DNA from: a virus
Taxonomy: Duplodnaviria > Caudoviricetes
Strand: one strand, 5' to 3'
Length of the DNA: 54,066 nucleotides
Virus record (IMG/VR): IMGVR_UViG_3300042519_001321
Span: 1 to 54,066 of that record
The notes under the pieces are model-generated. The model was given only the letters and a program-made list of their open reading frames with translations. It ran no database searches and was not told where the DNA came from. How positions within the stretch are numbered: the first letter of the stretch is position 1; each line of letters opens with the position of its first letter. Positions 1-18,866 of this stretch are shown here, piece after piece. A program made the translations under genes and the position numbers.

Positions 1-599
1 TCGCCCCATCCGCAACTATAAATACCCTTTTCTTTTAAGTTGTTATCATCGAGAATCTTTTTTGTAAAATAAATTCGTTCTTTTCTAGCTAGTCTGCCTA
101 AACTTAAATAATAATATGATCTATTTTTAGAGGTAGTATTATGTTCTGTAGGATACCCAGCAGTATGATTATTATTTAATATTTGAAAAAACATGTTTCC
201 GGTCTTATGAAATATTTCAATATCGTCAACATGAGCATAAATGAACCCTGCGGTTAAACCACCATCAACCCATATAATTTTTTTGTAGCCATAGTTTTTA
301 ATAATGTCAAAAACAACATTCCAATAAACAGAATTAAGTGCTTCACTTAGATAACCAACCATAATGTAATCTTTTTTAGGCAGTTTCTCTAACGCAGCCC
401 GAGTGTATGCAGGCATGCTAAATTCTGTCATGCATTGATAATCTATAATATTAAAAGTCTCTGTATTATCTAATAAATTATATAATTCATTGTAACCTTG
501 ATCACAATAAATGATATCGATACCTTGGCGAGTGACGCCTTTAGTTAACCGGAACGGATCAGGTAGTACTCCTGTTACATTATTAGTCTCAGTATTCAT
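1..599 (-). CDS. Partial CDS running off the left edge; putative GT10-like/GT-B glycosyltransferase, probable paralog of 3160..4317
   Basis: Not in the ORF track. I translated it by hand from the ATG at 599, which overlaps the end of the 589..1833 gene: MNTETNNVTGVLPDPFRLTKG...YYLSLGRLARKERIYFTKKILDD...GIYSCGWG, with no stop before position 1. The LSLGRLARKER block aligns loosely with MFVGRPNFQK of 3160..4317. The product call is inference because the diagnostic C-terminus lies outside the window. Confidence 0.6.
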   Translation of the reverse strand, partial: MNTETNNVTGVLPDPFRLTKGVTRQGIDIIYCDQGYNELYNLLDNTETFNIIDYQCMTEFSMPAYTRAALEKLPKKDYIMVGYLSEALNSVYWNVVFDIIKNYGYKKIIWVDGGLTAGFIYAHVDDIEIFHKTGNMFFQILNNNHTAGYPTEHNTTSKNRSYYYLSLGRLARKERIYFTKKILDDNNLKEKGIYSCGWG

Positions 600-1833
600 G
601 TTTAAATCCGTATTTCTCTACCATTTCTATTAGTTCAGGAAAAACAGTTCGCCAAGTTAAATTAGCAGGATGCTCACGTTGCTTATCGAGTTGATCATTA
701 TACTTGCAGAATTGCTCCCACTTAGTCTCATCCCAACTGTCATTTTCAAATAACCCTGTTATATTTGAAAAATGCACACCGTTACCATATTTTCCGTTTC
801 TATATTTTGTAATAATTTCTTTTCTTACTTCAGGTGGTAGTACAGCCGGACTTAAAAAGTCTGGATCATAAACAAAGTTCATGTCAACAGGTACTTGTGC
901 CCAATCTAAAAATTCTTCTAGATAAGCAAAATTGTATGCACTAACAGTTTGCGTGATTCGCACAGTTAACTCAGTCTGCATTAACGTATTTAAATTGTTT
1001 CTAACGTCAGCCCAATATGTAGGATAACGTATATAATGATTGCGAATATTTAAATCGTCGATACTAGGACATACACGAGTTTCTTTAAATTCACTCCACA
1101 GTGGAATAGCTTGCTCTGGTAAGTTAGTCATATTGATGTTGTACCACAGTGTGATATTCTTACTGCGACCGCTTTCTACTAGCTTGCGTAAGTATTTCCA
1201 GTGAGCTTTAATCAGTGTAGGCTCACCGCCGTTAATGTATAGTACTTCCATGTTAGGCGCACAGTTATACAAGTCTTCATAGAACGCATCATCTTCAGGC
1301 CACCTGAAGTCATTCTTGTGATCTAACCAACTATAGCCGTCATTTACGAAATCAAGCGTTTCAACCAATTCTTTATAGTCACGGCGCCATTGACTACTAC
1401 TTGCTGGATTGCAAGTGCGACACCGAACATTGCAAACATTGCCAAGCCTAAGCTCAACAAAACGCAAATCAAGAGGAATGCCCCCGTTAGCGTCAGTACT
1501 GCTAGCAGCCCAAGAAAGGCTTCTGTGAGGGTACTGTTCGATTTCATGTACACGTTTGCTGCGTATTCCCTTATCTTCTTCATCATAACACCTCGTACAC
1601 GCAGCAGGTTTTTCATCATTTAACATCTGCTGCCTAATTTCTTTGAAATAATCACTGTTCATGTGAGTATCGATATTGTGATCATTTAAGTTAAAAAACT
1701 CATCACGATCGTTTCCGTAGTTTCTAGCGCGGTTCTTTCCGGCGGTGTGGTCGCTAATACAACATGGTGTGACTCCCCCGTGAGGGTGAGTGCCTAAATG
1801 TATCCATGGTAGAGGACAGTAGGTTTTACTCAT
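589..1833 (-). CDS. Radical SAM protein with N-terminal twitch/SPASM-like Cys cluster (paralog 1)
   Basis: CNVRCRTC (CxxxCxxC) and INGGEPT motifs; N-terminal YCPLPWIH...TPCC...CTRC; C-terminal DKQR...VFPEL. Confidence 0.92.
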   Translation of the reverse strand: MSKTYCPLPWIHLGTHPHGGVTPCCISDHTAGKNRARNYGNDRDEFFNLNDHNIDTHMNSDYFKEIRQQMLNDEKPAACTRCYDEEDKGIRSKRVHEIEQYPHRSLSWAASSTDANGGIPLDLRFVELRLGNVCNVRCRTCNPASSSQWRRDYKELVETLDFVNDGYSWLDHKNDFRWPEDDAFYEDLYNCAPNMEVLYINGGEPTLIKAHWKYLRKLVESGRSKNITLWYNINMTNLPEQAIPLWSEFKETRVCPSIDDLNIRNHYIRYPTYWADVRNNLNTLMQTELTVRITQTVSAYNFAYLEEFLDWAQVPVDMNFVYDPDFLSPAVLPPEVRKEIITKYRNGKYGNGVHFSNITGLFENDSWDETKWEQFCKYNDQLDKQREHPANLTWRTVFPELIEMVEKYGFKHEY

Positions 1834-3167
1834 ATAAATGAACCTTTAGCTACAGCGCCGTATTTAGGATCAGCTAATGCTTTAGCATAATGAAAATCGT
1901 AATCAAAATAAGGTTTGATTATTTCGTATAGCTCGGGGAATGTTGTTCTAAAGTCCTCTCCCCTATATAGATCACCAGCAACTATTTGTTGCATAAACAT
2001 TCTACGGCGGACTGCCATCTCGGTTTCTACTGTAATATTTGGATCGGGTACATCACTCCAGTCGCGCATTGGTATAACAACTTCTTCTAACGGTGTCAGC
2101 ACATGATTAATAATACCTTTAATCTGCCCTTCAATTGATGGATTAGGAAAAGTTATATTTTGTAACGGCGCAACAATACGTGATTTTACGAATTCTTCAA
2201 ACACATTACTGTTGTACCAGCTAGGGAAATGAACCATGTTAAAGAAAATTTCAAAGTTAGGCCAGCGAGTTGAGAATACATCAATATATTCTTTAAGGTA
2301 CATAACATTCATTGCAGACACAGTACATGTGATGCTTACGTAAATTTCTTTGTTTGTGTGTAATGTATGGAAGTGATCTAAATTAGCACTAACAATATCC
2401 CAATCTGCTCCGTGACGGAGATATTCGAAACGTTCTTTTGATGCTGCATCAATACTAACACCAAATCCTACATCTTTGAAGTTTGCAATCAATTTACCTA
2501 CTAGATCTGTATGCAGTTGTGTACCGTTTGTACTAAAGTTTAGAGCAATATCTTTAGAAATTCCGCGGTCAATAAGTTTTTCTGCAAAGGCTTTAAACTC
2601 TTTCATGTACAGAGGTTCGCCGCCCATAATTTCTAGATACTTAATATCCTTAATCCAGTCGTCCATCTCAGTCCAAAACTTTGCATTTTCCATGTCGTCC
2701 ATAGGAATTTGCACCGTTTCTTTTAAATATGGTAAGCCGCGATCTTCTGATTCTTTGACCCACTTACTGCTGTAGTTAGGATTGCAGGTTCTGCATTTGA
2801 TATTACATGTTGTTCCTAAGATGAGCTGAAAATCCTGTGGCATTTCTGGTTCAACAGAATAATCAATTTCTTCATAGCGCCATTTAGCATAGCCATTATA
2901 CATTTCACGCTTAGACTGTTTACCATTTGCTTCATCTTGCCAACAGTGTTTACAATTTGTAGGTAATTTTCCTTCGCGAATTTCTTGGCGAATGTTTTTA
3001 TAGTAGTCGCTGTGGAAAATATCCCTTACGCTAGTACTGCCCAAAGTAAACGGATCACCGTTTGTGTCGTAGACCCGCTCTTGTGCGATGCAGCAAGTCC
3101 TTACAAAACCGCCAGGTTCGTTGCTCATGTGCTTCCAGAGCAAGCTACAATATCTAGGTTCAGACAT
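1830..3167 (-). CDS. Radical SAM protein with N-terminal twitch/SPASM-like Cys cluster (paralog 2)
   Basis: CNIKCRTC, MGGEPL, STNGT and VSIDA motifs; N-terminal YCSLLWKH...RTCC...CKHC; ATGA overlap with the downstream gene. Confidence 0.92.
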   Translation of the reverse strand: MSEPRYCSLLWKHMSNEPGGFVRTCCIAQERVYDTNGDPFTLGSTSVRDIFHSDYYKNIRQEIREGKLPTNCKHCWQDEANGKQSKREMYNGYAKWRYEEIDYSVEPEMPQDFQLILGTTCNIKCRTCNPNYSSKWVKESEDRGLPYLKETVQIPMDDMENAKFWTEMDDWIKDIKYLEIMGGEPLYMKEFKAFAEKLIDRGISKDIALNFSTNGTQLHTDLVGKLIANFKDVGFGVSIDAASKERFEYLRHGADWDIVSANLDHFHTLHTNKEIYVSITCTVSAMNVMYLKEYIDVFSTRWPNFEIFFNMVHFPSWYNSNVFEEFVKSRIVAPLQNITFPNPSIEGQIKGIINHVLTPLEEVVIPMRDWSDVPDPNITVETEMAVRRRMFMQQIVAGDLYRGEDFRTTFPELYEIIKPYFDYDFHYAKALADPKYGAVAKGSFI

Positions 3168-4317
3168 CTACTAATTCCTCTTTTTCATTATAAATCTTGT
3201 AAGCTAGGTTATAATTATAATCTAAAATTTCTTGTACTTGTGGTGATTGAATTCTTTCCTGCAATTCACTAAAAGACATAGACAGTGTTGATTCAACTTG
3301 ATCAAGTATAGCAGTTAGCCTGTCATAAAAATTTTCTATACTATCATAACTTTCATCAAACAAAATTCCATCAAATGTTTTAAATCCCCAAGATTTAAAT
3401 TGTTTTAGTGAATGAGGCATACCAAGTCGAATAAATGGAACTTTTAATAATACACATTTAAACGTTTTTTCTGATATCATATCTTCCTTCCACCATTTAT
3501 TGGCTTGTTTAAACCTCAAGTAGTCATCGTAATTATTAAAGTCTTCGTTTTCTAAATAGTCAACAGTAAAATTAAATAATCCTTTAGAAAAATACGAACT
3601 AAATTTAGTTGAGTCGCCACCCCAAGGTAATGTTAGATCGGGATGTTCTTGTTTTCCTGTTTCAACAGAACCAGGTAGTTCTTTAAGTTTTTCAACATTA
3701 ATATTTAAACTACTAGGTGGTGTATAGTTATCATATAAAAATGTTGAAACAATATCATGTTCTAATAAAGAATCCTTAATAGTATCTAAATACCATTTTA
3801 CGATGATATTTTTTTGAAAATTAGGTCTCCCAACAAACATCGACATTTTTTTATCTGCAATAGTAGATGACTTAGTGTACCCGCGGTCTATAAGTTTTGC
3901 TAACCAGAATCTTTTACTTTGACTTTTAACTGTCATTCTGTTAGTAATAGAATTTTTGTCGCACCAATTATTATAAGTTTCTCTGCCATATACATTAGAT
4001 GTTAATAGTATTATATTTGTAATATTAAACTTTAGTTTTGCAGATAAATTATGTAAAAATTCAAACCACGATAGTTCTTTTTTTAAATGAATATGATCAG
4101 TATTTAAAAATGTTATAGGTTCATGGATATAGTCTAGTATTATATTTTTGTTAGGAAATTTTATACTTACTTCTTCGAGTAGTTTTTTTAATTTAAATTC
4201 AATATTGCCCTTACAATTAAAAAGAAACCCACCATGCAAATTAACATAATAAGAAGTTAGGGGAGAGTGAACTCCCCTAACTCTCATGTTTTTTGTTATT
4301 GCTTTTTGCAATAACAT
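3160..4317 (-). CDS. Putative glycosyltransferase, GT10 (fucosyltransferase)-like C-terminal motif
   Basis: EDMISEKTFKCVLLKVPFIRLG...GFKTFDGILFDESYD resembles the GT10 donor-binding motif (DYxTEK...PVVxG); visibly AT-rich; coupled to both neighbours. Confidence 0.55.
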   Translation of the reverse strand: MLLQKAITKNMRVRGVHSPLTSYYVNLHGGFLFNCKGNIEFKLKKLLEEVSIKFPNKNIILDYIHEPITFLNTDHIHLKKELSWFEFLHNLSAKLKFNITNIILLTSNVYGRETYNNWCDKNSITNRMTVKSQSKRFWLAKLIDRGYTKSSTIADKKMSMFVGRPNFQKNIIVKWYLDTIKDSLLEHDIVSTFLYDNYTPPSSLNINVEKLKELPGSVETGKQEHPDLTLPWGGDSTKFSSYFSKGLFNFTVDYLENEDFNNYDDYLRFKQANKWWKEDMISEKTFKCVLLKVPFIRLGMPHSLKQFKSWGFKTFDGILFDESYDSIENFYDRLTAILDQVESTLSMSFSELQERIQSPQVQEILDYNYNLAYKIYNEKEELVDV

Positions 4318-5600
4318 TATCTAGTATTGCCATAATGAACAACAGTTACACCCTCTAAGTGCGGTGTCTTACGCCATGGATCAACCACAACACTGCTAGC
4401 AGCAAAGTTAAGAGCTGTGCCATTAGCTGTTGCTACCGTGAGTGCTTCATCAGCACCGGTAACTCGATGATCAGCATACCAACCTTTTACAAAGTCTAGC
4501 TGTTCACCGTAAGTGATCTGCGGATTGTGTGCTAGTAAATAAACTGCCGGGCTAGATAGAACGTCAGCCGGAGGTACTTCTCCCATTACTTCATCTAAAT
4601 AATAAAGTTTAGCACCTAGCTGTTCTACATAATGTCCAACTAACATACTACTACTACCGGCATCATACGGTACTAAAGGCTTGTATGCTTTACCTACAAT
4701 AATAACAGGCTTGCCGTCAGCAAGTTCAACTAACTTTTTAGCCATGTTTTCTGCTTGTACTTCACGTGAGCGCATCACAGCGTCAAATAAGTCGTAGCCT
4801 AAGTCTAGCCTTTCAGCTAGATGACGTAGTGCAATATTATCGCGAGGATGACATGCACCACCATCGCCCATACCAGGCTTCATGTAACCAGGTCCCATAA
4901 TGCGTCTGTCGCTTGATGCTAGTGCATCGCAAACTACTTCGGCATTAACATGACCTAGCTTCTCTGCTACGTCTTGAATCATATTTACTAGACTTACTTT
5001 AGCACTAATAAATGTATTATAGAACACTTTAATACACTCGGTTTCCTCCCACGTGCCAATGATATAACGTGGTTCGTTCTGCATAATAGTCTTGTAGAAG
5101 TCTACAAGTTCCTTTGCATCACCTGTTTCACTGCCATCTTCTGTGCCGATCATAACCATTTCTGGGTTAACCATGTCCCACTTAACAGTACCCATAGCAA
5201 TTAAGTACGGGTTATAAATGAAACGTGCATTAGTTATTAATGGTTGCAATTGACTGCGAACTGTACCTGGTAGCACAGTCGAAATAAGAACAATTAACTG
5301 AGAGGGGGTTGCAACAGCATTTACCTGACGTAGTACATCTTTAACTACACTGTAGTCAAAGTCTTTGTTGGGTAAATGGCTGGTAGGTGCTTTGCCATCA
5401 TATTGTGGGTCATGCGGCGTTTCCACTGCAATGAATACAATATCTTGCCCTTGCACCGCCTGCTCTAAGTTGGGGACCATCTTAAAGTTTTCTGGGGTGC
5501 GGGCAGAGATATCGTACCCTACAACATCATGTACCTCGGCAACCATCTCGGCGCAGGCTTGTCCTAACTTGCCTACTCCAATAAATCCGATTGAGGCCAT
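4317..5600 (-). CDS. ugd: UDP-glucose/GDP-mannose dehydrogenase family protein
   Basis: Rossmann GFIGVGKLG, IAVETP, ISTVLPGT, catalytic Lys region IKVFYNTF, catalytic Cys motif GDGGACHPRD, C-terminal GKAYKP and VDPW; SD AGGAG upstream. The exact sugar is not determinable from sequence. Confidence 0.9.
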   Translation of the reverse strand: MASIGFIGVGKLGQACAEMVAEVHDVVGYDISARTPENFKMVPNLEQAVQGQDIVFIAVETPHDPQYDGKAPTSHLPNKDFDYSVVKDVLRQVNAVATPSQLIVLISTVLPGTVRSQLQPLITNARFIYNPYLIAMGTVKWDMVNPEMVMIGTEDGSETGDAKELVDFYKTIMQNEPRYIIGTWEETECIKVFYNTFISAKVSLVNMIQDVAEKLGHVNAEVVCDALASSDRRIMGPGYMKPGMGDGGACHPRDNIALRHLAERLDLGYDLFDAVMRSREVQAENMAKKLVELADGKPVIIVGKAYKPLVPYDAGSSSMLVGHYVEQLGAKLYYLDEVMGEVPPADVLSSPAVYLLAHNPQITYGEQLDFVKGWYADHRVTGADEALTVATANGTALNFAASSVVVDPWRKTPHLEGVTVVHYGNTR

Positions 5601-5643
5601 TTGTATCTCCTAATTTTTTAAATACAGTTTTAACTGTACGCAA

Positions 5644-5651
5644 TATTTATC
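5644..5651 (-). promoter_or_regulatory. T4-late-like promoter box GATAAATA upstream of the dehydrogenase gene
   Basis: Intergenic, one mismatch to the T4 gp55 consensus TATAAATA; the same box recurs in other intergenic gaps. Confidence 0.55.
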
Positions 5652-5669
5652 AGGAGATTTTTATATTGT

Positions 5670-7064
5670 TTAATGTTTTGGTTCACGCATCCACCAATCA
5701 TACAACTCTGGATCAGCAGCATATATGTTTTCGATACGTAGGGGCTGATCAGGACGGATATCAGCAATCTTATCCTGCCAGTTACGTCCTTTAAAAAATG
5801 ATTCTTCTGCCTGATCGGGCCACTGTTCTTGGAACGTAGGTGTTACTAGCATATTCTCTAATTCACGTATTAGAGTCTGTTGCTTGTGTGTAGCTCTAGG
5901 CACAATGTAATCTAAATTATCTTTGATAATACGATCTAAAATGTGCCGCGGTAATGCCATAGGACTGAATACGATATCAGGGTGGAACGCAAACATACGT
6001 TTAGTTTCAATCTTAACATCTAGTTCCAGTGCATAGTTAAAGAAGGTTTTAAGGTCAAACAGGCCTGGACCTGTTAGTGTAAGATCCATAAGCATACGAT
6101 CTTTGCCACCGGGTAATGCCACACCTTCTCGGAAGTTCTGGTCCCATTCTTTCCATTTAAGTCCAGTACGAACAAATTCACCGATAGACCCAGTGCCATC
6201 AATACTAGCACACATAGTCCAATCTTTAGCTTTAGGTAGCCAATCGTACAAATAATGATTATTAAATCTAATTCTGCTTAAGTTACTATTATAGCGCAAA
6301 TGTACTTTCTTTAAATTATCATCTTGTGCAAGTCGATCCATAGCACGCCAATGTATGTCGTACATTAATGGCTCTCCGCCAACCCAATAAATTTCTTCTA
6401 CAACTCCACTGCAAATAGCAGCCCAAAATTCTTCCTCAACTACTTCTTTTTGGAATCGGTTAATGATTGTCTTATTCTCCGGGACCATAAAGGGCTGATT
6501 GGTTGAGTTCCATAATCCGTGCTTTCGTTTCTCTGCTTCCCAGCTCGACGAAAGAGGCTCACCACACGTACGACACTTAAAATTGCATAAATTACTGACC
6601 CTATAGTCAAAGCTAATAGGAACCATATTAGTACGTCCATCATCATCTGTCTCCTCAAATGCTTGTTCTATTTTATCTTTAAATAGAAATCCTGTAAACC
6701 ATTGGCGATATGTGCTTTGACTTAGAATACTGTCGTTGCACACTGCACACTGGGGGATTGTTTCACCAGCCATTAGCTTCTTGCGAATATCCATCATATA
6801 GGGACTATTCCAGTGCTCGTCTAGGCTAATGGGTTTGTAATCATCGATAGTACCCACATCCTTGTACTTACCAGTGCTTTTATCATTGCTAGCGTCAATG
6901 TATTGACGCTGCATCATGTGTTCTTCCCGACTAGCACAACACATTCTACGCTCGCTCTGCGGACTAATATATGTATGTGTCCATGGTGCCATGCAGAATG
7001 TTCTGTTAGGTGACTCAGGGCTCATTTGCCCGTGTTCCCAAATTGGTTTAATTTTGTTTGTCAT
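5670..7064 (-). CDS. Radical SAM protein with N-terminal twitch/SPASM-like Cys cluster (paralog 3)
   Basis: CNFKCRTC, VGGEPL, YNSNLS and ASIDG motifs; N-terminal FCMAPWTH...RMCC...CAVC. Confidence 0.92.
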   Translation of the reverse strand: MTNKIKPIWEHGQMSPESPNRTFCMAPWTHTYISPQSERRMCCASREEHMMQRQYIDASNDKSTGKYKDVGTIDDYKPISLDEHWNSPYMMDIRKKLMAGETIPQCAVCNDSILSQSTYRQWFTGFLFKDKIEQAFEETDDDGRTNMVPISFDYRVSNLCNFKCRTCGEPLSSSWEAEKRKHGLWNSTNQPFMVPENKTIINRFQKEVVEEEFWAAICSGVVEEIYWVGGEPLMYDIHWRAMDRLAQDDNLKKVHLRYNSNLSRIRFNNHYLYDWLPKAKDWTMCASIDGTGSIGEFVRTGLKWKEWDQNFREGVALPGGKDRMLMDLTLTGPGLFDLKTFFNYALELDVKIETKRMFAFHPDIVFSPMALPRHILDRIIKDNLDYIVPRATHKQQTLIRELENMLVTPTFQEQWPDQAEESFFKGRNWQDKIADIRPDQPLRIENIYAADPELYDWWMREPKH

Positions 7065-7282
7065 ATCTTATATATATCTATTATACCGTATTGAACCATA
7101 GTAGTTGTTGCTATGTTATGTTTCTTAACTACATCGAGTACTAAGTCAATCATTTTTTGACTGTTGCCGCAGATAATTTTTAGTGGTAATATATCTTGAT
7201 TCATAAAAATGAAATTCTCTACAAGTCGATCTACTTCATGGTGCCGTATTCCGTGTAAATCAAGTATATTGTTGTTATCCAT
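7061..7282 (-). CDS. Stand-alone Smr (small MutS-related) domain protein
   Basis: LDLHG signature near the N-terminus, KIICGNS at the IxGxG position, 73 aa; overlaps both neighbours. Confidence 0.75.
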   Translation of the reverse strand: MDNNNILDLHGIRHHEVDRLVENFIFMNQDILPLKIICGNSQKMIDLVLDVVKKHNIATTTMVQYGIIDIYKI

Positions 7283-8012
7283 TAGCTGCTGCCAATATTT
7301 CTAAGTTTTTAAAAAAGTCATAAAACTGCTGTGGAGTAAGAATACTAGTGTTATCGCTATCTTCGTCACCTAAATACTTTTCAATATAGTCTACGTTCTT
7401 ATACGCAACTGCTACACTAGGAAACACACCCTGATCTTTACTTTCGTAACCCACTATATATGTCTTCTTTAGCAGTTGATCTATATTATGTAGTTTCAAA
7501 TCTTCTAATTTAGGAGGAAAATCATCTGTTGTGTAATACACTGTTACTTTATGTTTGTGCGGAAATAAAACATTAGCATCTTCTAAGTGCTTATAATTAA
7601 AAATAATTTTACTAAAATTATCTTTACAAAAACGACTAAGCTCATAAATGTTTATTGCACTGTGATGTAATTTTATAGTTGTAGCATTGCAGTATTCTTT
7701 AACAAACTCTGCTGCTGCACTATCAGTTACGCTCCATATTACTGGGATACCAATTTGATCTGCAAGTTTAGCAACACGTGAAGCAGTCTCCTTATCGAGC
7801 TCACTTCTTTTAGCTACTTCTATATAAGGCAAATGCCCCCAGCGACTGGGTATCGAAACATATTTTTTATTCTCGTCTATAAGCAATGTAGGAGTACTTT
7901 TAGTAATAACAACAGCATCAGCATTACACTGTGCTGCTGCTATTAGCCGCGTTTCTAGCACATTGATATCATTTTCGTGCCCTACTCCTATATTTGCGTA
8001 TAGCTTAACCAT
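7275..8012 (-). CDS. Divergent NeuB (N-acetylneuraminate synthase)-like TIM-barrel protein, probably non-catalytic
   Basis: YANIGVGHEND...AAAQCNADAV, SEL, GIP...SVTD, IKL, VGYES and IEKY follow the NeuB motif order; no C-terminal SAF domain. Confidence 0.65.
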   Translation of the reverse strand: MVKLYANIGVGHENDINVLETRLIAAAQCNADAVVITKSTPTLLIDENKKYVSIPSRWGHLPYIEVAKRSELDKETASRVAKLADQIGIPVIWSVTDSAAAEFVKEYCNATTIKLHHSAINIYELSRFCKDNFSKIIFNYKHLEDANVLFPHKHKVTVYYTTDDFPPKLEDLKLHNIDQLLKKTYIVGYESKDQGVFPSVAVAYKNVDYIEKYLGDEDSDNTSILTPQQFYDFFKNLEILAAANG

Positions 8013-11923: not shown

Positions 11924-12576
11924 AACTTATCGTAATACCAACCGTTATCCATAAATTCAATGTGCTGCTGCCAGTCCATAACTACTTTATGCATGTATTC
12001 GCCCTTAACAACTGACCAAATTTGGTTGTCGTCGAAACCATCTTTTAAAAGATGGCTAGCAACAAGTTTAGCATATTTTTTCTTTGTTGTCAAGCTCATA
12101 TCACTTACACAACAACCAGCAACTGTTAATCCTTTATCTTTACCACCTATTGTAAAAATCAACTGTTGTTCTGAACCTCGTAATAATCTATATAAAATAG
12201 TATCAGGAAAAGTAGATTTATCATACGCTATACTACTGGTAGAAAACACAAATGTCCCGTTCATTTTATCTTCTAGGTATTTTAACAGTAATAGTTTAAA
12301 CCAAAATCCGACCTTCCAAGTATGCATGAACGTATTATATGTTTCTTTTTGCTCTGCTAAAGGCTTAGTATAATCAAAGTCTGAACTCTGAATATTTGCA
12401 TTAAAGAAAACTCGATCAGGTAATTCGTTAGTGTTAATAGAATTAATAAATTCCTCGGGTTTGCTATAATCTACATTGTGCCGCCCAAACTTAATTACCT
12501 CATGACCTGCTGATTCCAAATCTTCTATAATGTATGATGCATATTCAGACGATGCTCCAAAGAACCAATATTTCAT
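11920..12576 (-). CDS. Degenerate SDR/Rossmann-fold protein
   Basis: FFGASSEYA at the Gly-rich loop position, VFFNA, FVFSTSS, YRLLR at the YxxxK position. I chose the ATG at 12576 as start because it directly follows the upstream TGA (12578-12580). Confidence 0.55.
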   Translation of the reverse strand: MKYWFFGASSEYASYIIEDLESAGHEVIKFGRHNVDYSKPEEFINSINTNELPDRVFFNANIQSSDFDYTKPLAEQKETYNTFMHTWKVGFWFKLLLLKYLEDKMNGTFVFSTSSIAYDKSTFPDTILYRLLRGSEQQLIFTIGGKDKGLTVAGCCVSDMSLTTKKKYAKLVASHLLKDGFDDNQIWSVVKGEYMHKVVMDWQQHIEFMDNGWYYDKL

Positions 12577-12577
12577 A

Positions 12578-13129
12578 TCAACTTTTAATCCTATCAAACA
12601 TCATTGAAATAGAAAATCTATCCTTTTTCTCTTTTTTGTTTAATCCTACGCTGTGAAAACTGTTGTTCGAAACTTTAAATAGTAAAAGTTGATTAGCTTT
12701 TCCGCCTACTTCAATTGGGTTGCTGCCGGTTATGTCTGAATGAAATGTTGTACCGCAAATATCATCTAAGTACAACACACCTCTTATAGGCACTGTTTCC
12801 CAGTGAGTATCGATGTGTATCGGAAATATATTATCAGCTGGCAGTATAGAAGCACTACATTTATTTTCTAAACACGCTTCATTCCATATAGTATTGATGG
12901 CTGTTAATATTAGTTTTTCATTATCTCTAAGTATGCCCATTAATGGATGATAGGAAAGTGAGAAATGATGCTCTAACGAATTATCAGTAATTGTGTAGTT
13001 TGATAAAAACATTTCATTATGTGATTTATCAAACAATACAGGATCAAAAAAGTCGTCGATCAAAATGTATTCTACATCATGACATAGCTTAACATTTTCT
13101 CGACAAATTTGACCAATTTTTGATAGCAT
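12578..13129 (-). CDS. 2OG-Fe(II) oxygenase family protein
   Basis: HxD (IHID), GVLYL, distal His (SFHSV), 2OG-binding RxS (DRFSI); N-terminal LIDDFF typical of the family. Confidence 0.75.
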   Translation of the reverse strand: MLSKIGQICRENVKLCHDVEYILIDDFFDPVLFDKSHNEMFLSNYTITDNSLEHHFSLSYHPLMGILRDNEKLILTAINTIWNEACLENKCSASILPADNIFPIHIDTHWETVPIRGVLYLDDICGTTFHSDITGSNPIEVGGKANQLLLFKVSNNSFHSVGLNKKEKKDRFSISMMFDRIKS

Positions 13130-14124
13130 TAAAGCAGCCCCTTTTCTAACAATTCTTGAATCTGCTGTTCACGAATCATTACGCCCCAACGACGCGGATT
13201 CACATACGTCTTTTTAAAGAACTTGCACATCTGTGGGTCTGGATTAAACAGCATCATTTCGTTAATGCTTTCGTTAAGTTCGTTGCCTAGCTTACAAATT
13301 TCTTCGTATAGTGCTTCTTTGCTCCATGCAAGTTTAGTATAACGACACACAATCGGTCCTGCAAACTGCGGTGCTACTTCTTTGTTGAAATAATCTTTGA
13401 ACCACTCGTAATCGGATATTAAATTTGTGTCCCAATCTGTTAGTACACTTAGCTTACAACCTAAACGTGCGCCGTAAATAGCCCATAGACCGTTTTCCAC
13501 ATCACTGCCAATGTTGCACCATGTCTGTAGTCTGTTATAGTTGCCCCACCAGATCTTGGTCTTGAATTCGTCGGCGCGAACACGTTTGCCCTGATCAAGG
13601 CTCATCTTTACGCCTTCTCTAAAGCCTGCGCGGAATGCCTGAAATGGACTTGCTGTTTGATGTACTTCGCTGAATGTATCGTTAAGCTGAATATAGTTTA
13701 ACTTCCAACAGAACTCCATGCCTTCGCCATCGCCTGCTGCTTCATGTGTTTGCATCTGTAGTGCATACTCTTTAGGCCAGCACTTTAGTCCGCCATTGCC
13801 ATACACTAACCCATTAAGTAAGTTTTTAGCGTTCCAGCTAAAGATGCTTTCGCTAATATTATTGCCGTCATGATCGGTATCAGGTACATCGAGTACTTGC
13901 TCAAAGAAGTCATCCATAACGATGTTGTCACCGTCTACAGTAATAAAACGTTCAGTTTCACTTTGGCGGGCGCACTCTTTATGGGCAGCGTCAAATCCTT
14001 TGACGCCGTGTACCCGCTTTGCCCATGGTACTTTGTTTAATAGATCTGCCCAGTTTTCTTCAGCATTGGGCTCATCGTAGGAGATATAGAAGATGTCTAA
14101 TTCGGTAACATCAATTTTTGCCAT
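13129..14124 (-). CDS. Putative GT-A fold glycosyltransferase-like phage protein
   Basis: ISYDEP, RVHGVKGFDAAH, DxD motif in FITVDGDN, YGNGGLK, QAFRAGFREGVK; SD AGGA upstream. Confidence 0.6.
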   Translation of the reverse strand: MAKIDVTELDIFYISYDEPNAEENWADLLNKVPWAKRVHGVKGFDAAHKECARQSETERFITVDGDNIVMDDFFEQVLDVPDTDHDGNNISESIFSWNAKNLLNGLVYGNGGLKCWPKEYALQMQTHEAAGDGEGMEFCWKLNYIQLNDTFSEVHQTASPFQAFRAGFREGVKMSLDQGKRVRADEFKTKIWWGNYNRLQTWCNIGSDVENGLWAIYGARLGCKLSVLTDWDTNLISDYEWFKDYFNKEVAPQFAGPIVCRYTKLAWSKEALYEEICKLGNELNESINEMMLFNPDPQMCKFFKKTYVNPRRWGVMIREQQIQELLEKGLL

Positions 14125-14139
14125 ATGTATGTCCTGTAA

Positions 14140-14784
14140 TTAAGTACGTACATATTTATCAAAGGCTTTTACGGTGTATATACTAGTTTGAGTTAGATCT
14201 GTTGCGGTGCTAATAGTAACAGTGTTTTCCAGTAATCGTTTTAAAGAAATATATTCACTGTGTATCATTATATGCGGGTTATTTGGTGCAGTAAAGTAGA
14301 ATTTGAGTACCTTTTGTCCGTTAACTGTAGCTGATATTGGGTCAATACTAGAATACTTTTCTATCGTATTTTTAGATAATGTTACCGTAAACACTGTCTT
14401 AGTTAAGTTGCACATACATTCATAGTCTGATGAATTAGTATCTATTAGAAGTAAAGAATTGTTTTCAGTTGATACTACTGCACTTTCTAATGGGCGTGAT
14501 TCTATACTATAAAGATTATCTACAAGCGGATCAATTTTAACATAAAACAAATTCCAATTGTTATTTTCTAAAATTTCTACCTGCTCATTACTAAATTCTT
14601 TGACCTGCCATCCTTCTTTAAGCGGCATATCCTCTTTGCTTATTGAAACTATTGTGCCGTCAGATAAAAAATACACCTTTGGTTGTTTAGCCAATTCCTG
14701 TCTAATAAGTCCAGCAAGGCCGCCTGCTGCGTCTTTAGCTGCTTGAAATCTTAAACGTCGCTCTTCTGCTTCTTTAGATACCAT
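14140..14784 (-). CDS. Hypothetical phage protein
   Basis: 214-aa ORF overlapping the upstream glycosyltransferase gene; no recognisable motif. Confidence 0.75.
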   Translation of the reverse strand: MVSKEAEERRLRFQAAKDAAGGLAGLIRQELAKQPKVYFLSDGTIVSISKEDMPLKEGWQVKEFSNEQVEILENNNWNLFYVKIDPLVDNLYSIESRPLESAVVSTENNSLLLIDTNSSDYECMCNLTKTVFTVTLSKNTIEKYSSIDPISATVNGQKVLKFYFTAPNNPHIMIHSEYISLKRLLENTVTISTATDLTQTSIYTVKAFDKYVRT

Positions 14785-15643
14785 AGTCTTGTTCCATCTG
14801 TTTAATCATTTTAGCTGTGAGCCAGTTTTTTTCTACATAGTGAAATGGCAATAATTGTTGAAAGTTTCCTATTTTAAAGTCTTTGTAATTATTATAGTAA
14901 GTAGGTATAGTTTCAGACCAATTATGGCTTATTAATGATGTAGGCACGTTTTGTACATGGCTTTTCATATGTACAAAAGTCGGCACTGCATCAATATTTT
15001 CTCGAGTACACTCATGTTCGATACCTAGCAGTTGCATGGCTAGTGCAAACGCAACATCACCGCTGAGCCAATCTGGCTTGCCTTCAGGCATGTACTTGTA
15101 AAAGAAACGCTGCCAGTGTTGAAATATGATTTCTGTCATAGCAAACAATTCACTAGCTAATTCACTTTTCTTAAAATAAAAGAAAGCTGTGTACACATTA
15201 GGCAAGTTATTCTTTACAAAGTATTCGCGATAGTAATTACTACTAACAGTTTCTCCGCGAAATGTCCGCACTTTAGTAGTAGCCCATACATCACGTTGAC
15301 TTAATGTATCCCACCAGTGACTCACATCTGTAGGAAATAACATATCTGTGTCTAATATGACGGTTTCTTCATACGGAGACATATACAAATATTTCCACTT
15401 GTTATTGATTTTCCATTGTGAGTCTGCTGCGTCATCTTGCCAAGGAATGTCAACTATATAATCAAATACTTGCTTATGTTTGCTGGTAATTAGTTTCTTA
15501 GTTTCTGCATCCACACATACAGTTAGGTTATTAACTGTACTTTGAGTAAGCTTTAAGTTAAGTGCAAGAGCATAAGCCTGTTGAAGATAATCAACAGTCC
15601 CAGTGTTTTGTGCTATAACTATATAACCTTTACTTGTTGTCAT
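14774..15643 (-). CDS. Putative GT-A (GT8-like) glycosyltransferase
   Basis: KGYIVIAQN, SPYEETVILDTDMLF (DxD), NVYTAFFYFKK, SGDVAFALA, FVHMK; start is either MTTSK (15643) or 15649. Confidence 0.7.
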   Translation of the reverse strand: MTTSKGYIVIAQNTGTVDYLQQAYALALNLKLTQSTVNNLTVCVDAETKKLITSKHKQVFDYIVDIPWQDDAADSQWKINNKWKYLYMSPYEETVILDTDMLFPTDVSHWWDTLSQRDVWATTKVRTFRGETVSSNYYREYFVKNNLPNVYTAFFYFKKSELASELFAMTEIIFQHWQRFFYKYMPEGKPDWLSGDVAFALAMQLLGIEHECTRENIDAVPTFVHMKSHVQNVPTSLISHNWSETIPTYYNNYKDFKIGNFQQLLPFHYVEKNWLTAKMIKQMEQDYGI

Positions 15644-16436
15644 ATACATATTCTATAAATTCAGGACAATGATAATCCGCAAACTGTGTTTTAATAAATG
15701 GTAAAACAATTTCTTTTACAAATTGTGTATGCATATATGATTGAGGATGAAAATCTCTGACTTGTATTTGTTGGCCATCAACTAAGGTTATGTCAAGTAG
15801 AGGAAAGTGGTCGTCTGTCCAGTGCTTGTAACACCAAGTATGCATACTTTCTATAGGTAACCATCTTGTTTTATCTACTAGATTATTTAACCAAGTGATA
15901 TTTGGGTTATTTTTCTGATGCAATGAAATACTGTCTGTCATAAAGTCTGTCATAAAATATTTAATGCCTAGATTGTCAAGATAATTTTGAACCCATAAAA
16001 TTTTTTCTAAGGTTAGTATTCGTTGATTCACATGGTCGTGCAGATGGGTGTAATAAATTTTATTCGTTTTTTCAGTCCAGTGACTGTTCATAATTAACCA
16101 TCCGCCCGGATCGTTTTTTACAACATGTGTTGGATTATAGCGCCAGTTATCATTATTTTCTAGCTGATGGGACAACTTTTCAAAGTATATATCGTGTCTG
16201 TCAGGACCGCTCCACATAATACCAACTAAAATTTCTTCTGGTTTATAGCCTTGCTGTAGTGCTTGCTGAACAGCATATACAGCCTTCCTTGCAATAAGGC
16301 CATTTCCTTGACTGCCCAACCCTACGTGATTGCACTCAATGTTGTACGATGCAGTTAAATGACACGGCCACGAGTACTGATTAGCCACATCAGAAAAACT
16401 ACAACCAGAAGTAATTATATGTTTAAACTGTGCCAT
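15630..16436 (-). CDS. SGNH-like hydrolase-fold protein
   Basis: ITSGCSFS (GxS block I), GLGSQGN, IMWS...R, C-terminal DFHP...H. Confidence 0.65.
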   Translation of the reverse strand: MAQFKHIITSGCSFSDVANQYSWPCHLTASYNIECNHVGLGSQGNGLIARKAVYAVQQALQQGYKPEEILVGIMWSGPDRHDIYFEKLSHQLENNDNWRYNPTHVVKNDPGGWLIMNSHWTEKTNKIYYTHLHDHVNQRILTLEKILWVQNYLDNLGIKYFMTDFMTDSISLHQKNNPNITWLNNLVDKTRWLPIESMHTWCYKHWTDDHFPLLDITLVDGQQIQVRDFHPQSYMHTQFVKEIVLPFIKTQFADYHCPEFIEYVYDNK

Positions 16437-16444
16437 TTCTTCTC

Positions 16445-17077
16445 TTAATAATTCCCTGACGCTAACACGATTTTACAAATATGTTCTAGGCGCTCAATAT
16501 GTTCATATGCTCGCCAAGGTGTAGTATCAATTGCGACTACTCCGTGACCTTTAATGCCCACAATGTCATAAGCGATGTTGCCTTCATTGTCAAGCTCTAA
16601 GTTATTATGACACTGTGTCGCAAGTTCTTCACTAATGGGAGGCACATCTCCTACATTAGGAGCCACTCTAGTATATCTACCCAGTTCAGGGAAGTGTGTT
16701 ACTAGTTCATTCAAGTTAATACCGGCGTGCATTGCAGCAACACAGTATGTAGGATGCACATGAACTACTACACGAATGTCATTACTATGCTGACCTAATT
16801 CTTTCAGTAAACCAAAGTGCAATGGTAGTTCACCGCTTGGTTGTAGCTCGCTGGAGATAGCAGTATAGGGTAGAATCTTGCAGATTGTTTCAGTACCGGT
16901 ATTTACTAGTCCAATCTTTTTAAATTGATCGGGCTGTAGTGTTTGCTTTCTTACCCCACTAGGTGTAATGTAGAAGTGGTCACGGTCATGATGACGAATA
17001 CTGATATTGCCATCACGACTAGTAATCCAGTTACGGGCGTAGGCGTCTTTTAGGATATCACAAATTGTTTCTAACAT
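16445..17077 (-). CDS. Class II aldolase/adducin family protein
   Basis: DGNISIR, ITPSG, PSGELPLH, metal-binding VVHVHP, GHGVV, IERLEH. Confidence 0.9.
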   Translation of the reverse strand: MLETICDILKDAYARNWITSRDGNISIRHHDRDHFYITPSGVRKQTLQPDQFKKIGLVNTGTETICKILPYTAISSELQPSGELPLHFGLLKELGQHSNDIRVVVHVHPTYCVAAMHAGINLNELVTHFPELGRYTRVAPNVGDVPPISEELATQCHNNLELDNEGNIAYDIVGIKGHGVVAIDTTPWRAYEHIERLEHICKIVLASGNY

Positions 17078-17079
17078 AA

Positions 17080-17277
17080 TTATCTTTTGCCTCTAAGTAA
17101 TCTCATTATTCTTTCTTCTTCAAGCTCAGTCCACACAAACCGGCCGCCGTGTATAGGGGGTTTACCAGTGCTAGGATCATAATCAATTAAATGTTCATAA
17201 TAGTGCCGTAACCATACTTGTTCACCACTAGTGACCCGTGTCGGTAACCATGCAAACTTTCTGTGTTCTATCGACAT
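17080..17277 (-). CDS. Small hypothetical phage protein
   Basis: 65 aa with KFAWLPTRVTSGEQVWL, a motif type I recognise from small phage proteins; fills the gap, with AGGA upstream; overlaps the upstream gene by 50 nt. Confidence 0.65.
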   Translation of the reverse strand: MSIEHRKFAWLPTRVTSGEQVWLRHYYEHLIDYDPSTGKPPIHGGRFVWTELEEERIMRLLRGKR

Positions 17278-18166
17278 GATCTAACATTTCCTCACTTATT
17301 CGATTGATTGCCCATTTATTCATAACATGTAAATCTACACTGCTCCACTTAGTTAGCATAAAGTCGCCCGGACTACGTGGCTTTTCTAAATACATGATTA
17401 GCGTACTATCATCAACTGCACTGTGTATGTCGTCGGTGTCAAATGTCTTGTATAGTGTAGTAGGAAGTTGTGGTATTCCTCTATCTTTGAATCCGCTCAT
17501 CATATGCGCTGCTATGCTAAAGCTGTAATCATTTCTATACAAATGGCCTTTCCACTTGTACATATCTTGATAGTACTGACGATTATTTTTTACATGTTTT
17601 ACACAATTAAAGAAACTTTCGGCGTAAGGAGTTTTACGAAAGTATACTACTGTGGCCCAATACATTGTAATACCAAAATCATTTAGTCGATTTAGTGTAG
17701 AATCCTTGCGCTCATACATAATATCCTGATACCGCCAATTCATCATCAGTTCTTCGTTGTGCCCCCAACATTGATTTAGAGTGTCACTTAATATCAAATA
17801 GTCCACATCTAACAAAATAGTTTCTTCGTATGGACTTAAATCATAAGCATCGCAACGATTAACATTATAAAATGATAATGTCTTTGCATTATGACTAGTA
17901 TCTTTAAATGTTCTAATATTTTGTTCTTTAAATTTTTTGTCTTTCTCAACAACAATAATATTATTAATGGCTTTTTTGATTGTTGCTTTACCTAAACTTT
18001 TTTCTGCATAGTCAAGGCTAGCTGGATCGGTTACGACCGTAATATTTTTAATACCTAAGTGACGCTGAATTAGAAAACTATTAACTACAGCTAATCTAAA
18101 ATAATCTATCTCTGCGTTGTTGTGGGCAAACATAATGATGCCGCGATCATTATTTGCCTTCTTCAT
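17228..18166 (-). CDS. Putative GT-A (GT8-like) glycosyltransferase, paralog of 14774..15643
   Basis: RGIIMFAHN, SPYEETILLDVDYL (DxD), YWATVVYFRK, RNDYSFSIA, LHVMNK; shares SPYEET and motif order with the paralog. Confidence 0.7.
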   Translation of the reverse strand: MKKANNDRGIIMFAHNNAEIDYFRLAVVNSFLIQRHLGIKNITVVTDPASLDYAEKSLGKATIKKAINNIIVVEKDKKFKEQNIRTFKDTSHNAKTLSFYNVNRCDAYDLSPYEETILLDVDYLILSDTLNQCWGHNEELMMNWRYQDIMYERKDSTLNRLNDFGITMYWATVVYFRKTPYAESFFNCVKHVKNNRQYYQDMYKWKGHLYRNDYSFSIAAHMMSGFKDRGIPQLPTTLYKTFDTDDIHSAVDDSTLIMYLEKPRSPGDFMLTKWSSVDLHVMNKWAINRISEEMLDHVDRTQKVCMVTDTGH

Positions 18167-18509
18167 TGAGATCTAAAACCTTGTGTACTTTGCGTGATTT
18201 GCGTAGCTTTTCGTATTCTGCATAGTAGTCGTTGGTTACTTCGAAATAACGACTAAGTATTTCACTATAAAAACTTTTTATATCAATTTTAATTGGGTTA
18301 TTATAGATGTCTAGCAGGACTGCATCCGTTTGCTGTTCGTCTAGTAATAACTTACAGAAATTAAGCAGCGTCCGATCAATAGTAAATGTGCCACCGTTAA
18401 TACTGTAGCTAAGAAGACTCTGGGTTTTAGCTCGCAATGCTGCTTGCTGATTATTAAGTGTTACTCGATAATTCGCAAATTCTAGTGCTTGTGTTAGACG
18501 TGTGCTCAT
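18150..18509 (-). CDS. Hypothetical phage protein, possibly a tail-fibre assembly chaperone
   Basis: 119-aa helical ORF (NGGTFTID...LLDIYNNPI) heading the enzyme operon; function is inference only. Confidence 0.7.
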   Translation of the reverse strand: MSTRLTQALEFANYRVTLNNQQAALRAKTQSLLSYSINGGTFTIDRTLLNFCKLLLDEQQTDAVLLDIYNNPIKIDIKSFYSEILSRYFEVTNDYYAEYEKLRKSRKVHKVLDLNEEGK

Positions 18510-18514
18510 AGCTA

Positions 18515-18522
18515 TATTTAAG
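18515..18522 (-). promoter_or_regulatory. T4-late-like box CTTAAATA, 5 nt before the ATG at 18509
   Basis: Directly follows a terminator; no SD before the ATG; same spacing as at 22251 and 48299. Confidence 0.55.
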
Positions 18523-18524
18523 TC

Positions 18525-18560
18525 AAAAAAAAGCCAGTAAGCTAACTTACTGGCTTTTTT
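18525..18560. terminator. Bidirectional rho-independent terminator
   Basis: AAAAAAAAGCCAGTAAG-CTAA-CTTACTGGCTTTTTT perfect inverted repeat with A and T tracts. Confidence 0.9.
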
Positions 18561-18834: not shown

Positions 18835-18866
18835 AAAAAGCCAGCATATTTAAATACTGGCTTTTT
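18835..18866. terminator. Bidirectional rho-independent terminator
   Basis: AAAAAGCCAG-CATATTTAAATA-CTGGCTTTTT; same stem as 18525..18560. Confidence 0.85.

Follow-up and report, generated by a model that had tools for sequence, protein, structure and literature searches.

We analysed a stretch of 54,066 bases (hereafter the window), which is the entire virus record IMGVR_UViG_3300042519_001321 (Caudoviricetes), and describe an island of 21 open reading frames (ORFs) behind its tail-fibre genes in which glycosyltransferase-like proteins and sugar-tailoring enzymes are combined with five paralogous radical S-adenosylmethionine (SAM) enzymes. Judged from its gene content, the island is a conserved and genuine pathway of soluble enzymes for the assembly and editing of sugars. 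We favour a cytoplasmic oligosaccharide pathway that would be coupled to the distal fibre genes and whose most likely acceptor would be one of the phage's own fibre proteins, a proposal to which we give somewhat less than an even chance. Substrates, product and target of the pathway are all what we infer from the genes. The completeness estimate for the record is 15% of the genome, which points to a jumbo phage of roughly 350 kb, and near-identical DNA occurs in many lake-water metagenomes.

The core of the island is a set of radical SAM enzymes of the N-terminal-twitch (N-twitch) type. Gene order is given throughout in the direction of transcription, all genes of interest being on the minus strand:

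10382..11923, minus strand: g11, N-terminal-twitch radical SAM enzyme (NF033640, 321 bits)
8005..9663, minus strand: g09, N-terminal-twitch radical SAM enzyme (NF033640, 318.3 bits)
5670..7064, minus strand: g06, N-terminal-twitch radical SAM enzyme (NF033640, 295.8 bits)
1830..3167, minus strand: g03, N-terminal-twitch radical SAM enzyme (NF033640, 296 bits)
589..1833, minus strand: g02, N-terminal-twitch radical SAM enzyme (NF033640, 364.5 bits)

A first, sequence-only reading of the island had proposed five twitch radical SAM enzymes, and this is borne out. All five proteins pass the NCBIfam model NF033640 (N_Twi_rSAM; curated cut-off 170 bits) over its full length, and their iron–sulphur cysteines are intact, each protein carrying CX3CX2C, GGEP and four N-terminal cysteines. 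These cysteines, CX3CX2C and GGEP are also invariant in an alignment of 17 sequences comprising phage and bacterial relatives. With the Pfam SPASM model, g02, g03 and g06 are each matched at the N-terminus, and in the profile derived from the alignment the family's own N-terminal domain matches the C-terminal twitch domain of BtrN (E = 9e-5). For the radical SAM core the best solved match is the maturase 8vpo of a peptide that is synthesized on ribosomes and modified after translation (RiPP; E = 1.4e-8), and there is a weak match to cytosylglucuronate decarboxylase. At the level of profile similarity, the BtrN and 8vpo matches are generic within the SPASM/twitch group. A phmmer search of the PDB with g02 and g11 gave nothing meaningful, and a literature search, in which some papers were screened by title, found none on the function of the N-terminal-twitch family.

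The five paralogs of the window share a mutual identity of only 20-31%, yet their orthologs are 45-97% identical among phages and 41-54% identical in Bdellovibrionota, which indicates that the paralogs have distinct conserved activities. The most conserved radical SAM member across phages is g11. It has 572 related stretches in a viral contig collection, of which 80, with identities of 45-97%, were kept, and 7650 detectable protein relatives at E <= 0.001 among 8000 candidates scored.

Five further genes had been read as glycosyltransferase (GT)-like, g04 and g01 among them as GT10-like:

17228..18166, minus strand: g20, GT8/glycogenin-like GT-A protein with a DxD motif (D120, D122), homologous to g16
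14774..15649, minus strand: g16, GT8/glycogenin-like GT-A protein (glycogenin profile match; phrog_1903)
13129..14124, minus strand: g14, DxD protein with a probable glycosyltransferase domain (invariant DxD; fusion partners)
3160..4317, minus strand: g04, 385-residue protein of a phage-rich family without a Pfam model
3..599, minus strand: g01, truncated at the end of the contig; N-terminal 199 residues of a g04-superfamily protein

Two of these five assignments are supported, g16 and g20 as GT8-like proteins; g14 is a probable transferase by its motif and fusions, and the GT10-like identity of g04 and g01 was not confirmed. The paralogy of g16 and g20 follows from hhalign (99.7%). Compared with solved structures, the g16 profile matches glycogenin-1 and -2 (GT8) in 19 of 22 rows at E = 1e-5 to 7.5e-5, the match spanning positions 4-106, i.e. 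the DxD-bearing half of the protein. The g20 profile reaches glycogenin at E of about 1 only, and its D120 and D122 are invariant. Neither g16 nor g20 had a match to a Pfam glycosyltransferase family with the threshold relaxed to E <= 5.

The best-conserved protein apart from the radical SAM enzymes is g14, with 54 invariant residues that include D64 and D66. It has no Pfam family and no PDB profile match; a profile search found 1574 members of its family in 1.84 billion representatives. We scanned 16 of 150 listed members, picked for unusual length, for fused domains. A GT-B domain of the GT1/GT28 type (Glyco_tran_28_C, EryCIII-like, UDPGT) precedes the g14 domain in eight of the 16, Sel1 repeats are present in four, a weak GT2 match in one and nothing in three. 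This fusion to GT1/GT28-type transferases makes a glycosyltransferase role of g14 likely. Weak signs of GT2 are a Glyco_tranf_2_3 match in one of 17 members (E = 0.039), a PF00535 match in a fused relative (E = 0.001) and the name GT2-like borne by an Atlas cluster, and hhalign of g14 with GT8-like families gave 0.2-3.7%.

The g04 superfamily has 1382 detected relatives, some of them fused to a PF05175 methyltransferase. The truncated g01 is 28% identical to a 400-residue ORF of the related locus L080, which matches the g04 profile (hhalign 92%), and its full length is 394 residues in a 97%-identical relative. The GT10 lead for g04 was a single Atlas score of 0.80, which the sequence tests did not confirm: PF00852 (GT10) matched none of 12 family members and none among 120 listed relatives, the listed relatives included no GT family at all, a PDB profile search with g04 found no GT10, and tblastn of g04 against phage records gave no match. 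PF00852 was likewise absent from five related genomes, but there the control was silent, so that this result is uninformative. The only other support for a GT10-like reading of g04 and g01 is the resemblance of an [ST]-E-K motif.

The remaining enzymes of the island, together with its first gene, are the following:

18150..18509, minus strand: g21, 119-residue protein without a known family, opening the island and overlapping g20
16445..17077, minus strand: g18, class II aldolase/epimerase family (PF00596, 8.7e-29, 101 bits)
15630..16436, minus strand: g17, DUF6071 protein (PF19547, 31.7 bits against a cut-off of 27)
12578..13129, minus strand: g13, 2-oxoglutarate (2OG)-Fe(II) oxygenase-like protein (PF13661, E = 0.0036, below cut-off)
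11920..12597, minus strand: g12, Rossmann protein like the short-chain dehydrogenases/reductases (SDRs; Pfam Epimerase, E = 0.062)
9663..10385, minus strand: g10, SGNH/GDSL-type hydrolase-like protein (GDS motif; Lipase_GDSL_2, E = 0.048)
7275..8012, minus strand: g08, NeuB-family TIM-barrel in a short form of 245 residues (PF03102, 44.6 bits against a cut-off of 22.1)
4317..5600, minus strand: g05, nucleotide-sugar 6-dehydrogenase family (UDP-glucose/GDP-mannose)

The dehydrogenase, the aldolase and the NeuB-like fold named in the sequence-only reading all have family matches above cut-off. For g05 these are PF00984 (2.7e-18) and PF03721 (2.8e-15), along with phrog_9148 (1e-97); its substrate is left unassigned because its score with NCBIfam TIGR03026 (150 bits) is below the cut-off of 189.8. 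The g08 protein comprises the NeuB barrel only, without the SAF domain, and fails the N-acetylneuraminate synthase equivalog TIGR03569 (38 against 399.65 bits). Other assignments of that reading stand by motif rather than by score. In the 2OG oxygenase-like g13, H-x-D, the distal H and R-x-S are readable in the translation, and in the SDR-like g12 the residues S121, Y136 and R140 are invariant, Y-x-x-x-K being replaced by Y-x-x-x-R; the family scores of both are sub-threshold. All six PDB profile matches of g12 are SDRs (E = 0.06-1.5). Of the two proteins that had been called SGNH proteins, g10 is supported by its motif at a weak score, and g17 scores as DUF6071. Five g10 homologs share invariant G8, S10, N42, D210 and H213, corresponding to the GDS block, the oxyanion Asn and the DxxH block, and a PDB profile search with g10 returned nothing. 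For g21 the mean column identity over 16 homologs is 62%. We considered g21 as a RiPP-type precursor and set this aside, the protein being conserved along its whole length and having a single cysteine.

All 21 ORFs of the island lie on the minus strand in the same orientation, from 18509 down to 3. The expected series of about 20 co-oriented, mostly overlapping genes is thus confirmed, with overlaps at 16 of 20 junctions and gaps of 2, 8, 15 and 69 nucleotides at the other four. Membrane-type hydrophobic segments are absent from all 21 proteins, and a family scan of the window turned up neither a lipid-carrier transferase nor a flippase or polymerase; these absences speak against a classical route to surface polysaccharide. 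The claim that the window lacks signal peptides needs a correction, since a lipoprotein ORF with a signal peptide is found just upstream of the island at 18609-18788. At g01 the island is truncated by the end of the contig. In a 97%-identical relative (L101), which has eight N-twitch genes, the sequence past the window's end continues with the full 394-residue g01, three further N-twitch enzymes, a second DUF6071 protein, a small ORF, a carbamoyltransferase, an 80-residue ORF, an 1100-residue protein with a terminal g14-like domain and a 230-residue ORF, after which convergent genes follow. The complete island should therefore span about 30 kb. Megablast of the island block against 50,697 phage records gave no match.

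The position of the island was compared with that of the fibre genes, the gene order of the window beginning with baseplate genes (a hub at 49468-52242, then a gp6-like wedge at 43756-47919 that is 42% identical to the wedge of PA5oct-like Pseudomonas phages) and continuing towards the island with:

22285-43740, minus strand: single ORF of 7151 residues, flanked by the baseplate wedge and the fibre genes
20009..21574, minus strand: g23, 521-residue tail-fibre-like protein (PHROG tail-fibre/virion family matches)
18944..19984, minus strand: g22, 346-residue Ser/Thr/Ala/Gly-rich fibre-like protein, a candidate acceptor

The 7151-residue ORF contains a YHYH domain (about residues 1626-1811) and a PA14/GLEYA carbohydrate-binding domain (about residues 4644-4756), and three smaller fibre-region genes, g24, g23 and g22, lie 3' of it. 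The matches of g23 are phrog_6427 (1.4e-17) and phrog_19602, 'tail fiber protein' (2.6e-9); g22 has no match in Pfam or PHROG. A spacer of 434 nucleotides separates g22 from the island. Fibre-like genes are thus found immediately upstream of the island, as had been stated.

This arrangement is conserved. Behind the fibre genes of many uncultured phages the same core, g22-g21-GT8-GT8-g14-radical SAM, is found again, as counted from BLAST homologs in 80 related viral loci of roughly 21 kb. In agreement with the expected synteny with tail genes, a g22-like gene precedes g21 in 23 of 23 cases, and g20 follows g21 within 20 nucleotides in 25 of 25; a radical SAM gene comes directly after g14 in 26 of 50. 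The loci hold between one and eight radical SAM ORFs within their ~21 kb (median 3, maximum 8; at least two in 70 of the 80), and whole related records hold 5 to 21 radical SAM matches. Of the 37 loci that reach further than 5 kb upstream of their first radical SAM gene, g14 is present in 26, g16 together with g20 in 23, g21 in 20 and g22 in 19. Only one of the 50,697 deposited phage genomes, that of the cultured Ralstonia phage RsoM2USA, has g11 (34% identity) and g14 (44% identity). Its minimal island shows the same order, with ORF355 (g22-like, 34% identity to g22), ORF354 (g21), ORF353 and ORF352 (GT8-like pair), ORF350 (g14) and ORF349 (radical SAM), and sits just after ORF356, ORF359 and ORF361. 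According to the available part of the published report, these three proteins were found in virions by mass spectrometry (PMC8504454). Sequence conservation is uneven along the core: where g11 is ~60% and g14 ~47% identical, the GT8-like proteins and g22 drop to about 30-40%.

Transcription signals were located around the start of the island and within it:

18835..18866, minus strand: terminator-like hairpin 1 after g22 (GCCAG...CTGGC stem, then a T run)
18609..18788, minus strand: 59-residue ORF with a lipoprotein signal and lipobox L-A-A-C, not an island enzyme
18525..18556, minus strand: terminator-like hairpin 2, directly before the island promoter box
18510..18521, minus strand: late-type box TTAAATA and 5-nucleotide spacer up to the g21 ATG
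14153..14160, minus strand: GATAAATA box 28 nucleotides before the g14 start, within the end of g15
5644..5651, minus strand: GATAAATA box in the 69-nucleotide gap before g05, followed by AGGAG

The proposed late-type box at the island start is present, TTAAATA standing 5 nucleotides before the g21 ATG, and like boxes precede the fibre genes of relatives ([TCGA]ATAAATA ahead of g22, g23 or g24 in 12 of them). TAAATA-N5-ATG is found in 11 of 11 sequences of the clade, i.e. the window and L005-L010, L012, L014, L017 and L080, and the g21 start has no Shine-Dalgarno sequence. This fixed spacing without a Shine-Dalgarno sequence suggests a leaderless late transcript. Two intermediate relatives have TATAAATA or CATAAATA with a leader of 26-27 nucleotides instead. 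We take TATAAATA to be the T4 late-promoter consensus; an exact copy (18823-18830) and AAGGAG precede the lipoprotein ORF. Among seven coding-strand occurrences of ATAAATA in the window, three lie within 45 nucleotides upstream of starts (lipoprotein ORF, g14 and g05), zones that make up 3% of the sequence, although the conservation of the GATAAATA box before g14 could also be explained by the coding sequence of g15. It is this late-type box, together with the constant position behind the fibres, that makes virion decoration the best-supported target of the pathway.

Relatives of the radical SAM enzymes are also encoded by bacteria. In a sample of 301 genomes of Bdellovibrionota, the phylum of one bacterial carrier, a metagenome-assembled genome (MAG) of Bacteriovoracaceae, 79 have proteins above the NF033640 cut-off, compared with none of 14 control genomes. 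Many of the carriers have at least five N-twitch genes scored, with as many as 36 candidates at first look, and the genes often form tandem arrays. The window's radical SAM proteins are overall 41-54% identical to ORFs of Bdellovibrionota; g09 is 51-54% identical to two ORFs of one genome, and g06 is 49% identical to another ORF (E = 9e-161). From these identities of 49-54%, which g06 and g09 share with ORFs of a single bacterial region, it follows that the radical SAM subfamilies predate the split between the phage and bacterial genes.

Six bacterial regions, chosen for several N-twitch hits each, were viewed for their gene neighbourhoods. The arrays adjoin GT2 transferases (two regions), a PMT_2 protein, a DegT-type aminotransferase, a HAD phosphatase, a sugar-type nucleotidyltransferase with a GDSL protein, SDR-like proteins and more radical SAM genes. 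Homologs of g14 are present in two of the six (39% and 31% identity), one of which also has weak g04-like and g10-like ORFs. The company of sugar enzymes that N-twitch genes keep in phage and bacteria alike favours sugar substrates. The first bacterial example, a Bacteriovoracaceae MAG in which three N-twitch genes stand amid housekeeping genes, had suggested no link to sugars, a view that this six-region sample changed. A 14-kb contig filed under a Gammaproteobacteria MAG (L100) is probably a mis-binned phage island and was not counted as bacterial context. It carries three N-twitch genes, a DUF6071 protein, a carbamoyltransferase and multi-g14-domain proteins.

The gene content can be arranged into a plausible route. 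Nucleotide sugars of the host would be diversified by g05 (uronic acid), g08 (NeuB-type condensation) and g18 (aldolase/epimerase). The two GT8-like proteins g20 and g16, possibly assisted by g21, may start a glycan on a hydroxyl acceptor and extend it, and g14 and the g04/g01 family might add further residues. The five N-twitch enzymes of the window (eight in the complete island), each of which would represent an old and separately conserved subfamily, could then each abstract a hydrogen at a particular sugar position and give keto, epimeric or deoxy sugars by BtrN-type chemistry. BtrN acts on a sugar-like substrate, and we use it as the working model for the radical SAM chemistry of the island. 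The SDR-like g12 and the 2OG oxygenase-like g13 may complete these edits, the SGNH-type g10 and g17 may handle O-acyl groups, and the carbamoyltransferase beyond the window may handle carbamoyl groups. The candidate acceptor, g22, g23 or the giant g25, would be modified in the cytoplasm ahead of assembly.

Several observations weigh against a fibre protein as the target of this route. Bdellovibrionota have the same enzyme sets without phage fibres. In the window, terminator-like hairpins stand between the fibre genes and the island, and of the 37 loci with sufficient upstream sequence, those outside the counts given above have no BLAST-detectable GT or fibre homolog. The much higher conservation of g11 and g14 compared with the fibre proteins is easier to reconcile with a small, conserved substrate than with a variable protein. 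In nine more distant loci a consensus TTGACA-17-TATAAT-type promoter lies ahead of the island while the fibre genes keep late-type boxes, and in such loci g14 paralogs and g11 often have a promoter of this type of their own. A complete 162-kb record contains 25 sigma-70-type promoters against one for the reversed control pattern. These promoters imply that the island of the distant phages is probably transcribed by unmodified host polymerase and hence not only late. The earlier proposal of a glycan assembly and tailoring line expressed during morphogenesis is thus upheld in that the gene content fits a soluble line, and a late-type box is present, and weakened in that expression in distant relatives is probably not strictly late. 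In a side count, TTGACA-N16-18-TAYANT was 6- to 25-fold enriched over the reversed control in G003, G004, G006, G007 and G008, with a strong one-strand bias per record.

The conservation of g11 and g14 and the fibre-less bacterial islands would be explained if the product were a free soluble pseudo-oligosaccharide or nucleoside-sugar metabolite in the manner of aminoglycoside or nucleoside antibiotics and not attached to the virion, which we consider unlikely. The mixture of GTs, BtrN-type radical SAM enzymes, dehydrogenase, 2OG oxygenase, carbamoyltransferase and SGNH proteins resembles what we take to be the content of aminoglycoside clusters. The twitch match to BtrN and the weak match to cytosylglucuronate decarboxylase, taken with the uronic-acid-forming dehydrogenase, point the same way, and in the accessible text of a cyanophage study a set of a radical SAM gene and an aminotransferase among GTs is termed 'antibiotic synthesis genes' (PMC12801897). 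However, the window has no cyclitol or scaffold synthase and no exporter, and such a metabolite would leave the constant place behind the fibre genes and the late-type box unaccounted for. A remodelling of the host surface, in which lipopolysaccharide (LPS) or capsule sugars are altered during infection, for example to block superinfection, could make use of the early expression that the sigma-70-type promoters of distant relatives would permit. In the sections available, modification of the O-chain was proposed for a fibre-adjacent GT8/radical SAM region of pelagimyophages (PMC7029224), and sets of GTs in cyanophages were given a like reading (PMC12801897). The published proposal is based on annotation only, a membrane segment is absent from all 21 proteins, as are a lipid-carrier transferase, flippase and polymerase from the window, and the box in the window's own clade is of the late type; we therefore regard a host-surface target as distinctly improbable.

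Two other targets appear less probable still. In DNA hypermodification, sugars placed by the transferases on a modified base would be edited by the radical SAM and tailoring enzymes and make the DNA resistant to nucleases of the host. The addition of diverse glycans to 5-hydroxymethylcytosine (5hmC) or 5-hydroxycytosine (5hoC) by GT-A and GT-B enzymes of phages is described in the available parts of two reports (bioRxiv 10.1101/2023.12.21.572611; PMC13326640); the island contains the 2OG oxygenase-like g13, distant relatives have early-type promoters, and RsoM2USA has two thymidylate-synthase homologs (PF00303). The routes described there, however, require a thymidylate-synthase homolog, or a C5-methyltransferase and 5mYOX, beside the GT. 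None of these three was found in the window, which covers ~15% of its own genome. PF00303 is missing from both relatives with a completeness of 90% or more and present in one of five related records overall, PF00145 is absent from all five records (control positive in 9 of 14 genomes), and the absence of PF12851 (Tet_JBP) from the same five is uninformative as the control was silent. The sequence-only argument against DNA targets is strengthened by this only indirectly, through the absence of PF00303 and PF00145 in the two near-complete relatives. The constant fibre linkage of the island also speaks against a DNA target, which we regard as very unlikely. Direct chemistry on protein, with the twitch radical SAM enzymes cross-linking, epimerising or oxidising residues of a fibre protein or of g21 (RiPP/anSME-like) and glycosylation proceeding separately, is to our mind the least probable. 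Most SPASM/twitch enzymes act on peptides, g21 is a small and highly conserved first gene, and among solved structures it is a RiPP maturase (8vpo) that the core matches best, an entry cited in a paper on cyclopropyl synthases in the portion available (PMC10878394). On the other side, this match covers the generic core only, g21 has one cysteine and lacks a variable core region, the family scan of the window detected no RiPP recognition element, and the bacterial neighbours are sugar enzymes, with no peptidase/transporter set in the six regions.

Returning to the fibre-linked glycan as the preferred product, a bolder extension is that each N-twitch subfamily performs a different radical edit (keto, epimer, deoxy, C-C) on it, so that the number and mix of paralogs would amount to a combinatorial sugar code on the receptor-binding apparatus. 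We regard this as rather doubtful. Under this extension the Bdellovibrionota, a phylum that includes predatory bacteria, would apply the same chemistry to a surface structure of their own, and the phage product would be the first radical-SAM-dependent virion glycan, with several new radical SAM reactions. The N-twitch enzymes are an abundant family for which we found no tested reaction in the literature, and the presence of 5 to 8 deeply diverged paralogs beside GTs suggests that aquatic phages devote up to a tenth of the genome to unusual sugar chemistry. If borne on the fibre, the product would bear on host recognition, shielding from defence and the reading of host range from genomes. As a free metabolite or DNA adduct, it would instead constitute a phage-made compound or DNA modification of a new class. 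Whichever the target, the island offers a defined enzyme set for finding radical SAM reactions on carbohydrates.

Three small ORFs interrupt the series of enzymes:

17080..17277, minus strand: g19, 65-residue ORF overlapping the g20 end (phrog_7749 at 1.4e-8)
14140..14784, minus strand: g15, 214-residue protein without a family match (near relatives only)
7061..7282, minus strand: g07, 73-residue ORF (weak Smr match, E = 0.0085)

Homologs of g15 are present in 12 and those of g07 in five of 82 related loci. None of the 82 has a homolog of g19, which is probably a variable insert. Joints and loose ends of metagenome contigs around the aldolase gene indicate that the stretch 16400-17100 varies within the population. 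Hairpin 2 is kept in 10 of 11 sequences of the clade, and it brackets, with the nearly identical hairpin 1, the lipoprotein ORF. The latter has an acidic Ala/Pro/Glu-rich tail, a repetitive region within which several metagenome contigs break, and could encode a lipoprotein of the spanin-like or exclusion type. In the 97%-identical relative L101 the small ORF ahead of the carbamoyltransferase (13284-13463) is acidic and its stop lies 3 nucleotides before the carbamoyltransferase start. Proteins of 850 to ~1940 residues with repeated or terminal g14-like domains are encoded in L101 (8224-11526), L100, L013, L050 and L053, usually downstream of the g11 ortholog. The 7151-residue ORF has a Gly/Ala-rich hydrophobic stretch near residue 4551 that scores like a membrane segment. 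Amid the minus-strand baseplate genes, 48308-49467 is the sole stretch of the window with a positive GC skew, and it contains plus-strand ORFs at 48409-48882 and 49133-49420 that have no family match.

Among known systems, BtrN, the 2-deoxy-scyllo-inosamine dehydrogenase of butirosin biosynthesis (PDB 4M7S/4M7T), shares with the island enzymes a twitch-type domain for an auxiliary cluster (E = 9e-5). The similarity is confined to this domain, which is C-terminal in BtrN and N-terminal in the island enzymes, and the island has no cyclitol genes. The literature that we found on a role of radical SAM enzymes in phage glycosylation is limited to two papers. In the available text of the first, a hypervariable region by the tail fibres of pelagimyophages contains GT8 transferases, a UDP-glucose dehydrogenase and radical SAM cassettes (PMC7029224), and in that of the second, 13 transferases are listed for a cyanophage, a radical SAM gene among them being called an antibiotic-synthesis gene (PMC12801897). 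These regions of pelagimyophages and large cyanomyophages, which carry 'LPS-related' genes, resemble the island in combining GT8, dehydrogenase and radical SAM genes beside the fibres of T4-like aquatic phages. They differ in that the papers, in the same parts, proceed from annotation only and favour the host O-chain or DNA as targets, leaving the g21-GT8-GT8-g14-N-twitch core and the radical SAM family undefined. In clusters for glycan hypermodification of DNA (5hmC/5hoC), mono- to oligosaccharides are assembled by GT-A and GT-B enzymes, in some cases with sugar-nucleotide enzymes, much as is proposed for the island, but these clusters adjoin a thymidylate-synthase homolog or a C5-methyltransferase/5mYOX pair, and radical SAM enzymes go unmentioned in the accessible portions of both texts. 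A parallel in position is the virion glycosylation of mycobacteriophages (Freeman et al. 2023), where, as described in papers that cite it, phage GTs encoded beside structural genes decorate virion proteins; these systems comprise one or two transferases and are described without radical SAM or tailoring enzymes, whereas the island is known from its genes alone. With the NF033640 family itself the agreement extends over full-length matches, the N-terminal four-cysteine domain and CX3CX2C, and what distinguishes the island is the occurrence of 5-8 such paralogs in tandem in a phage.

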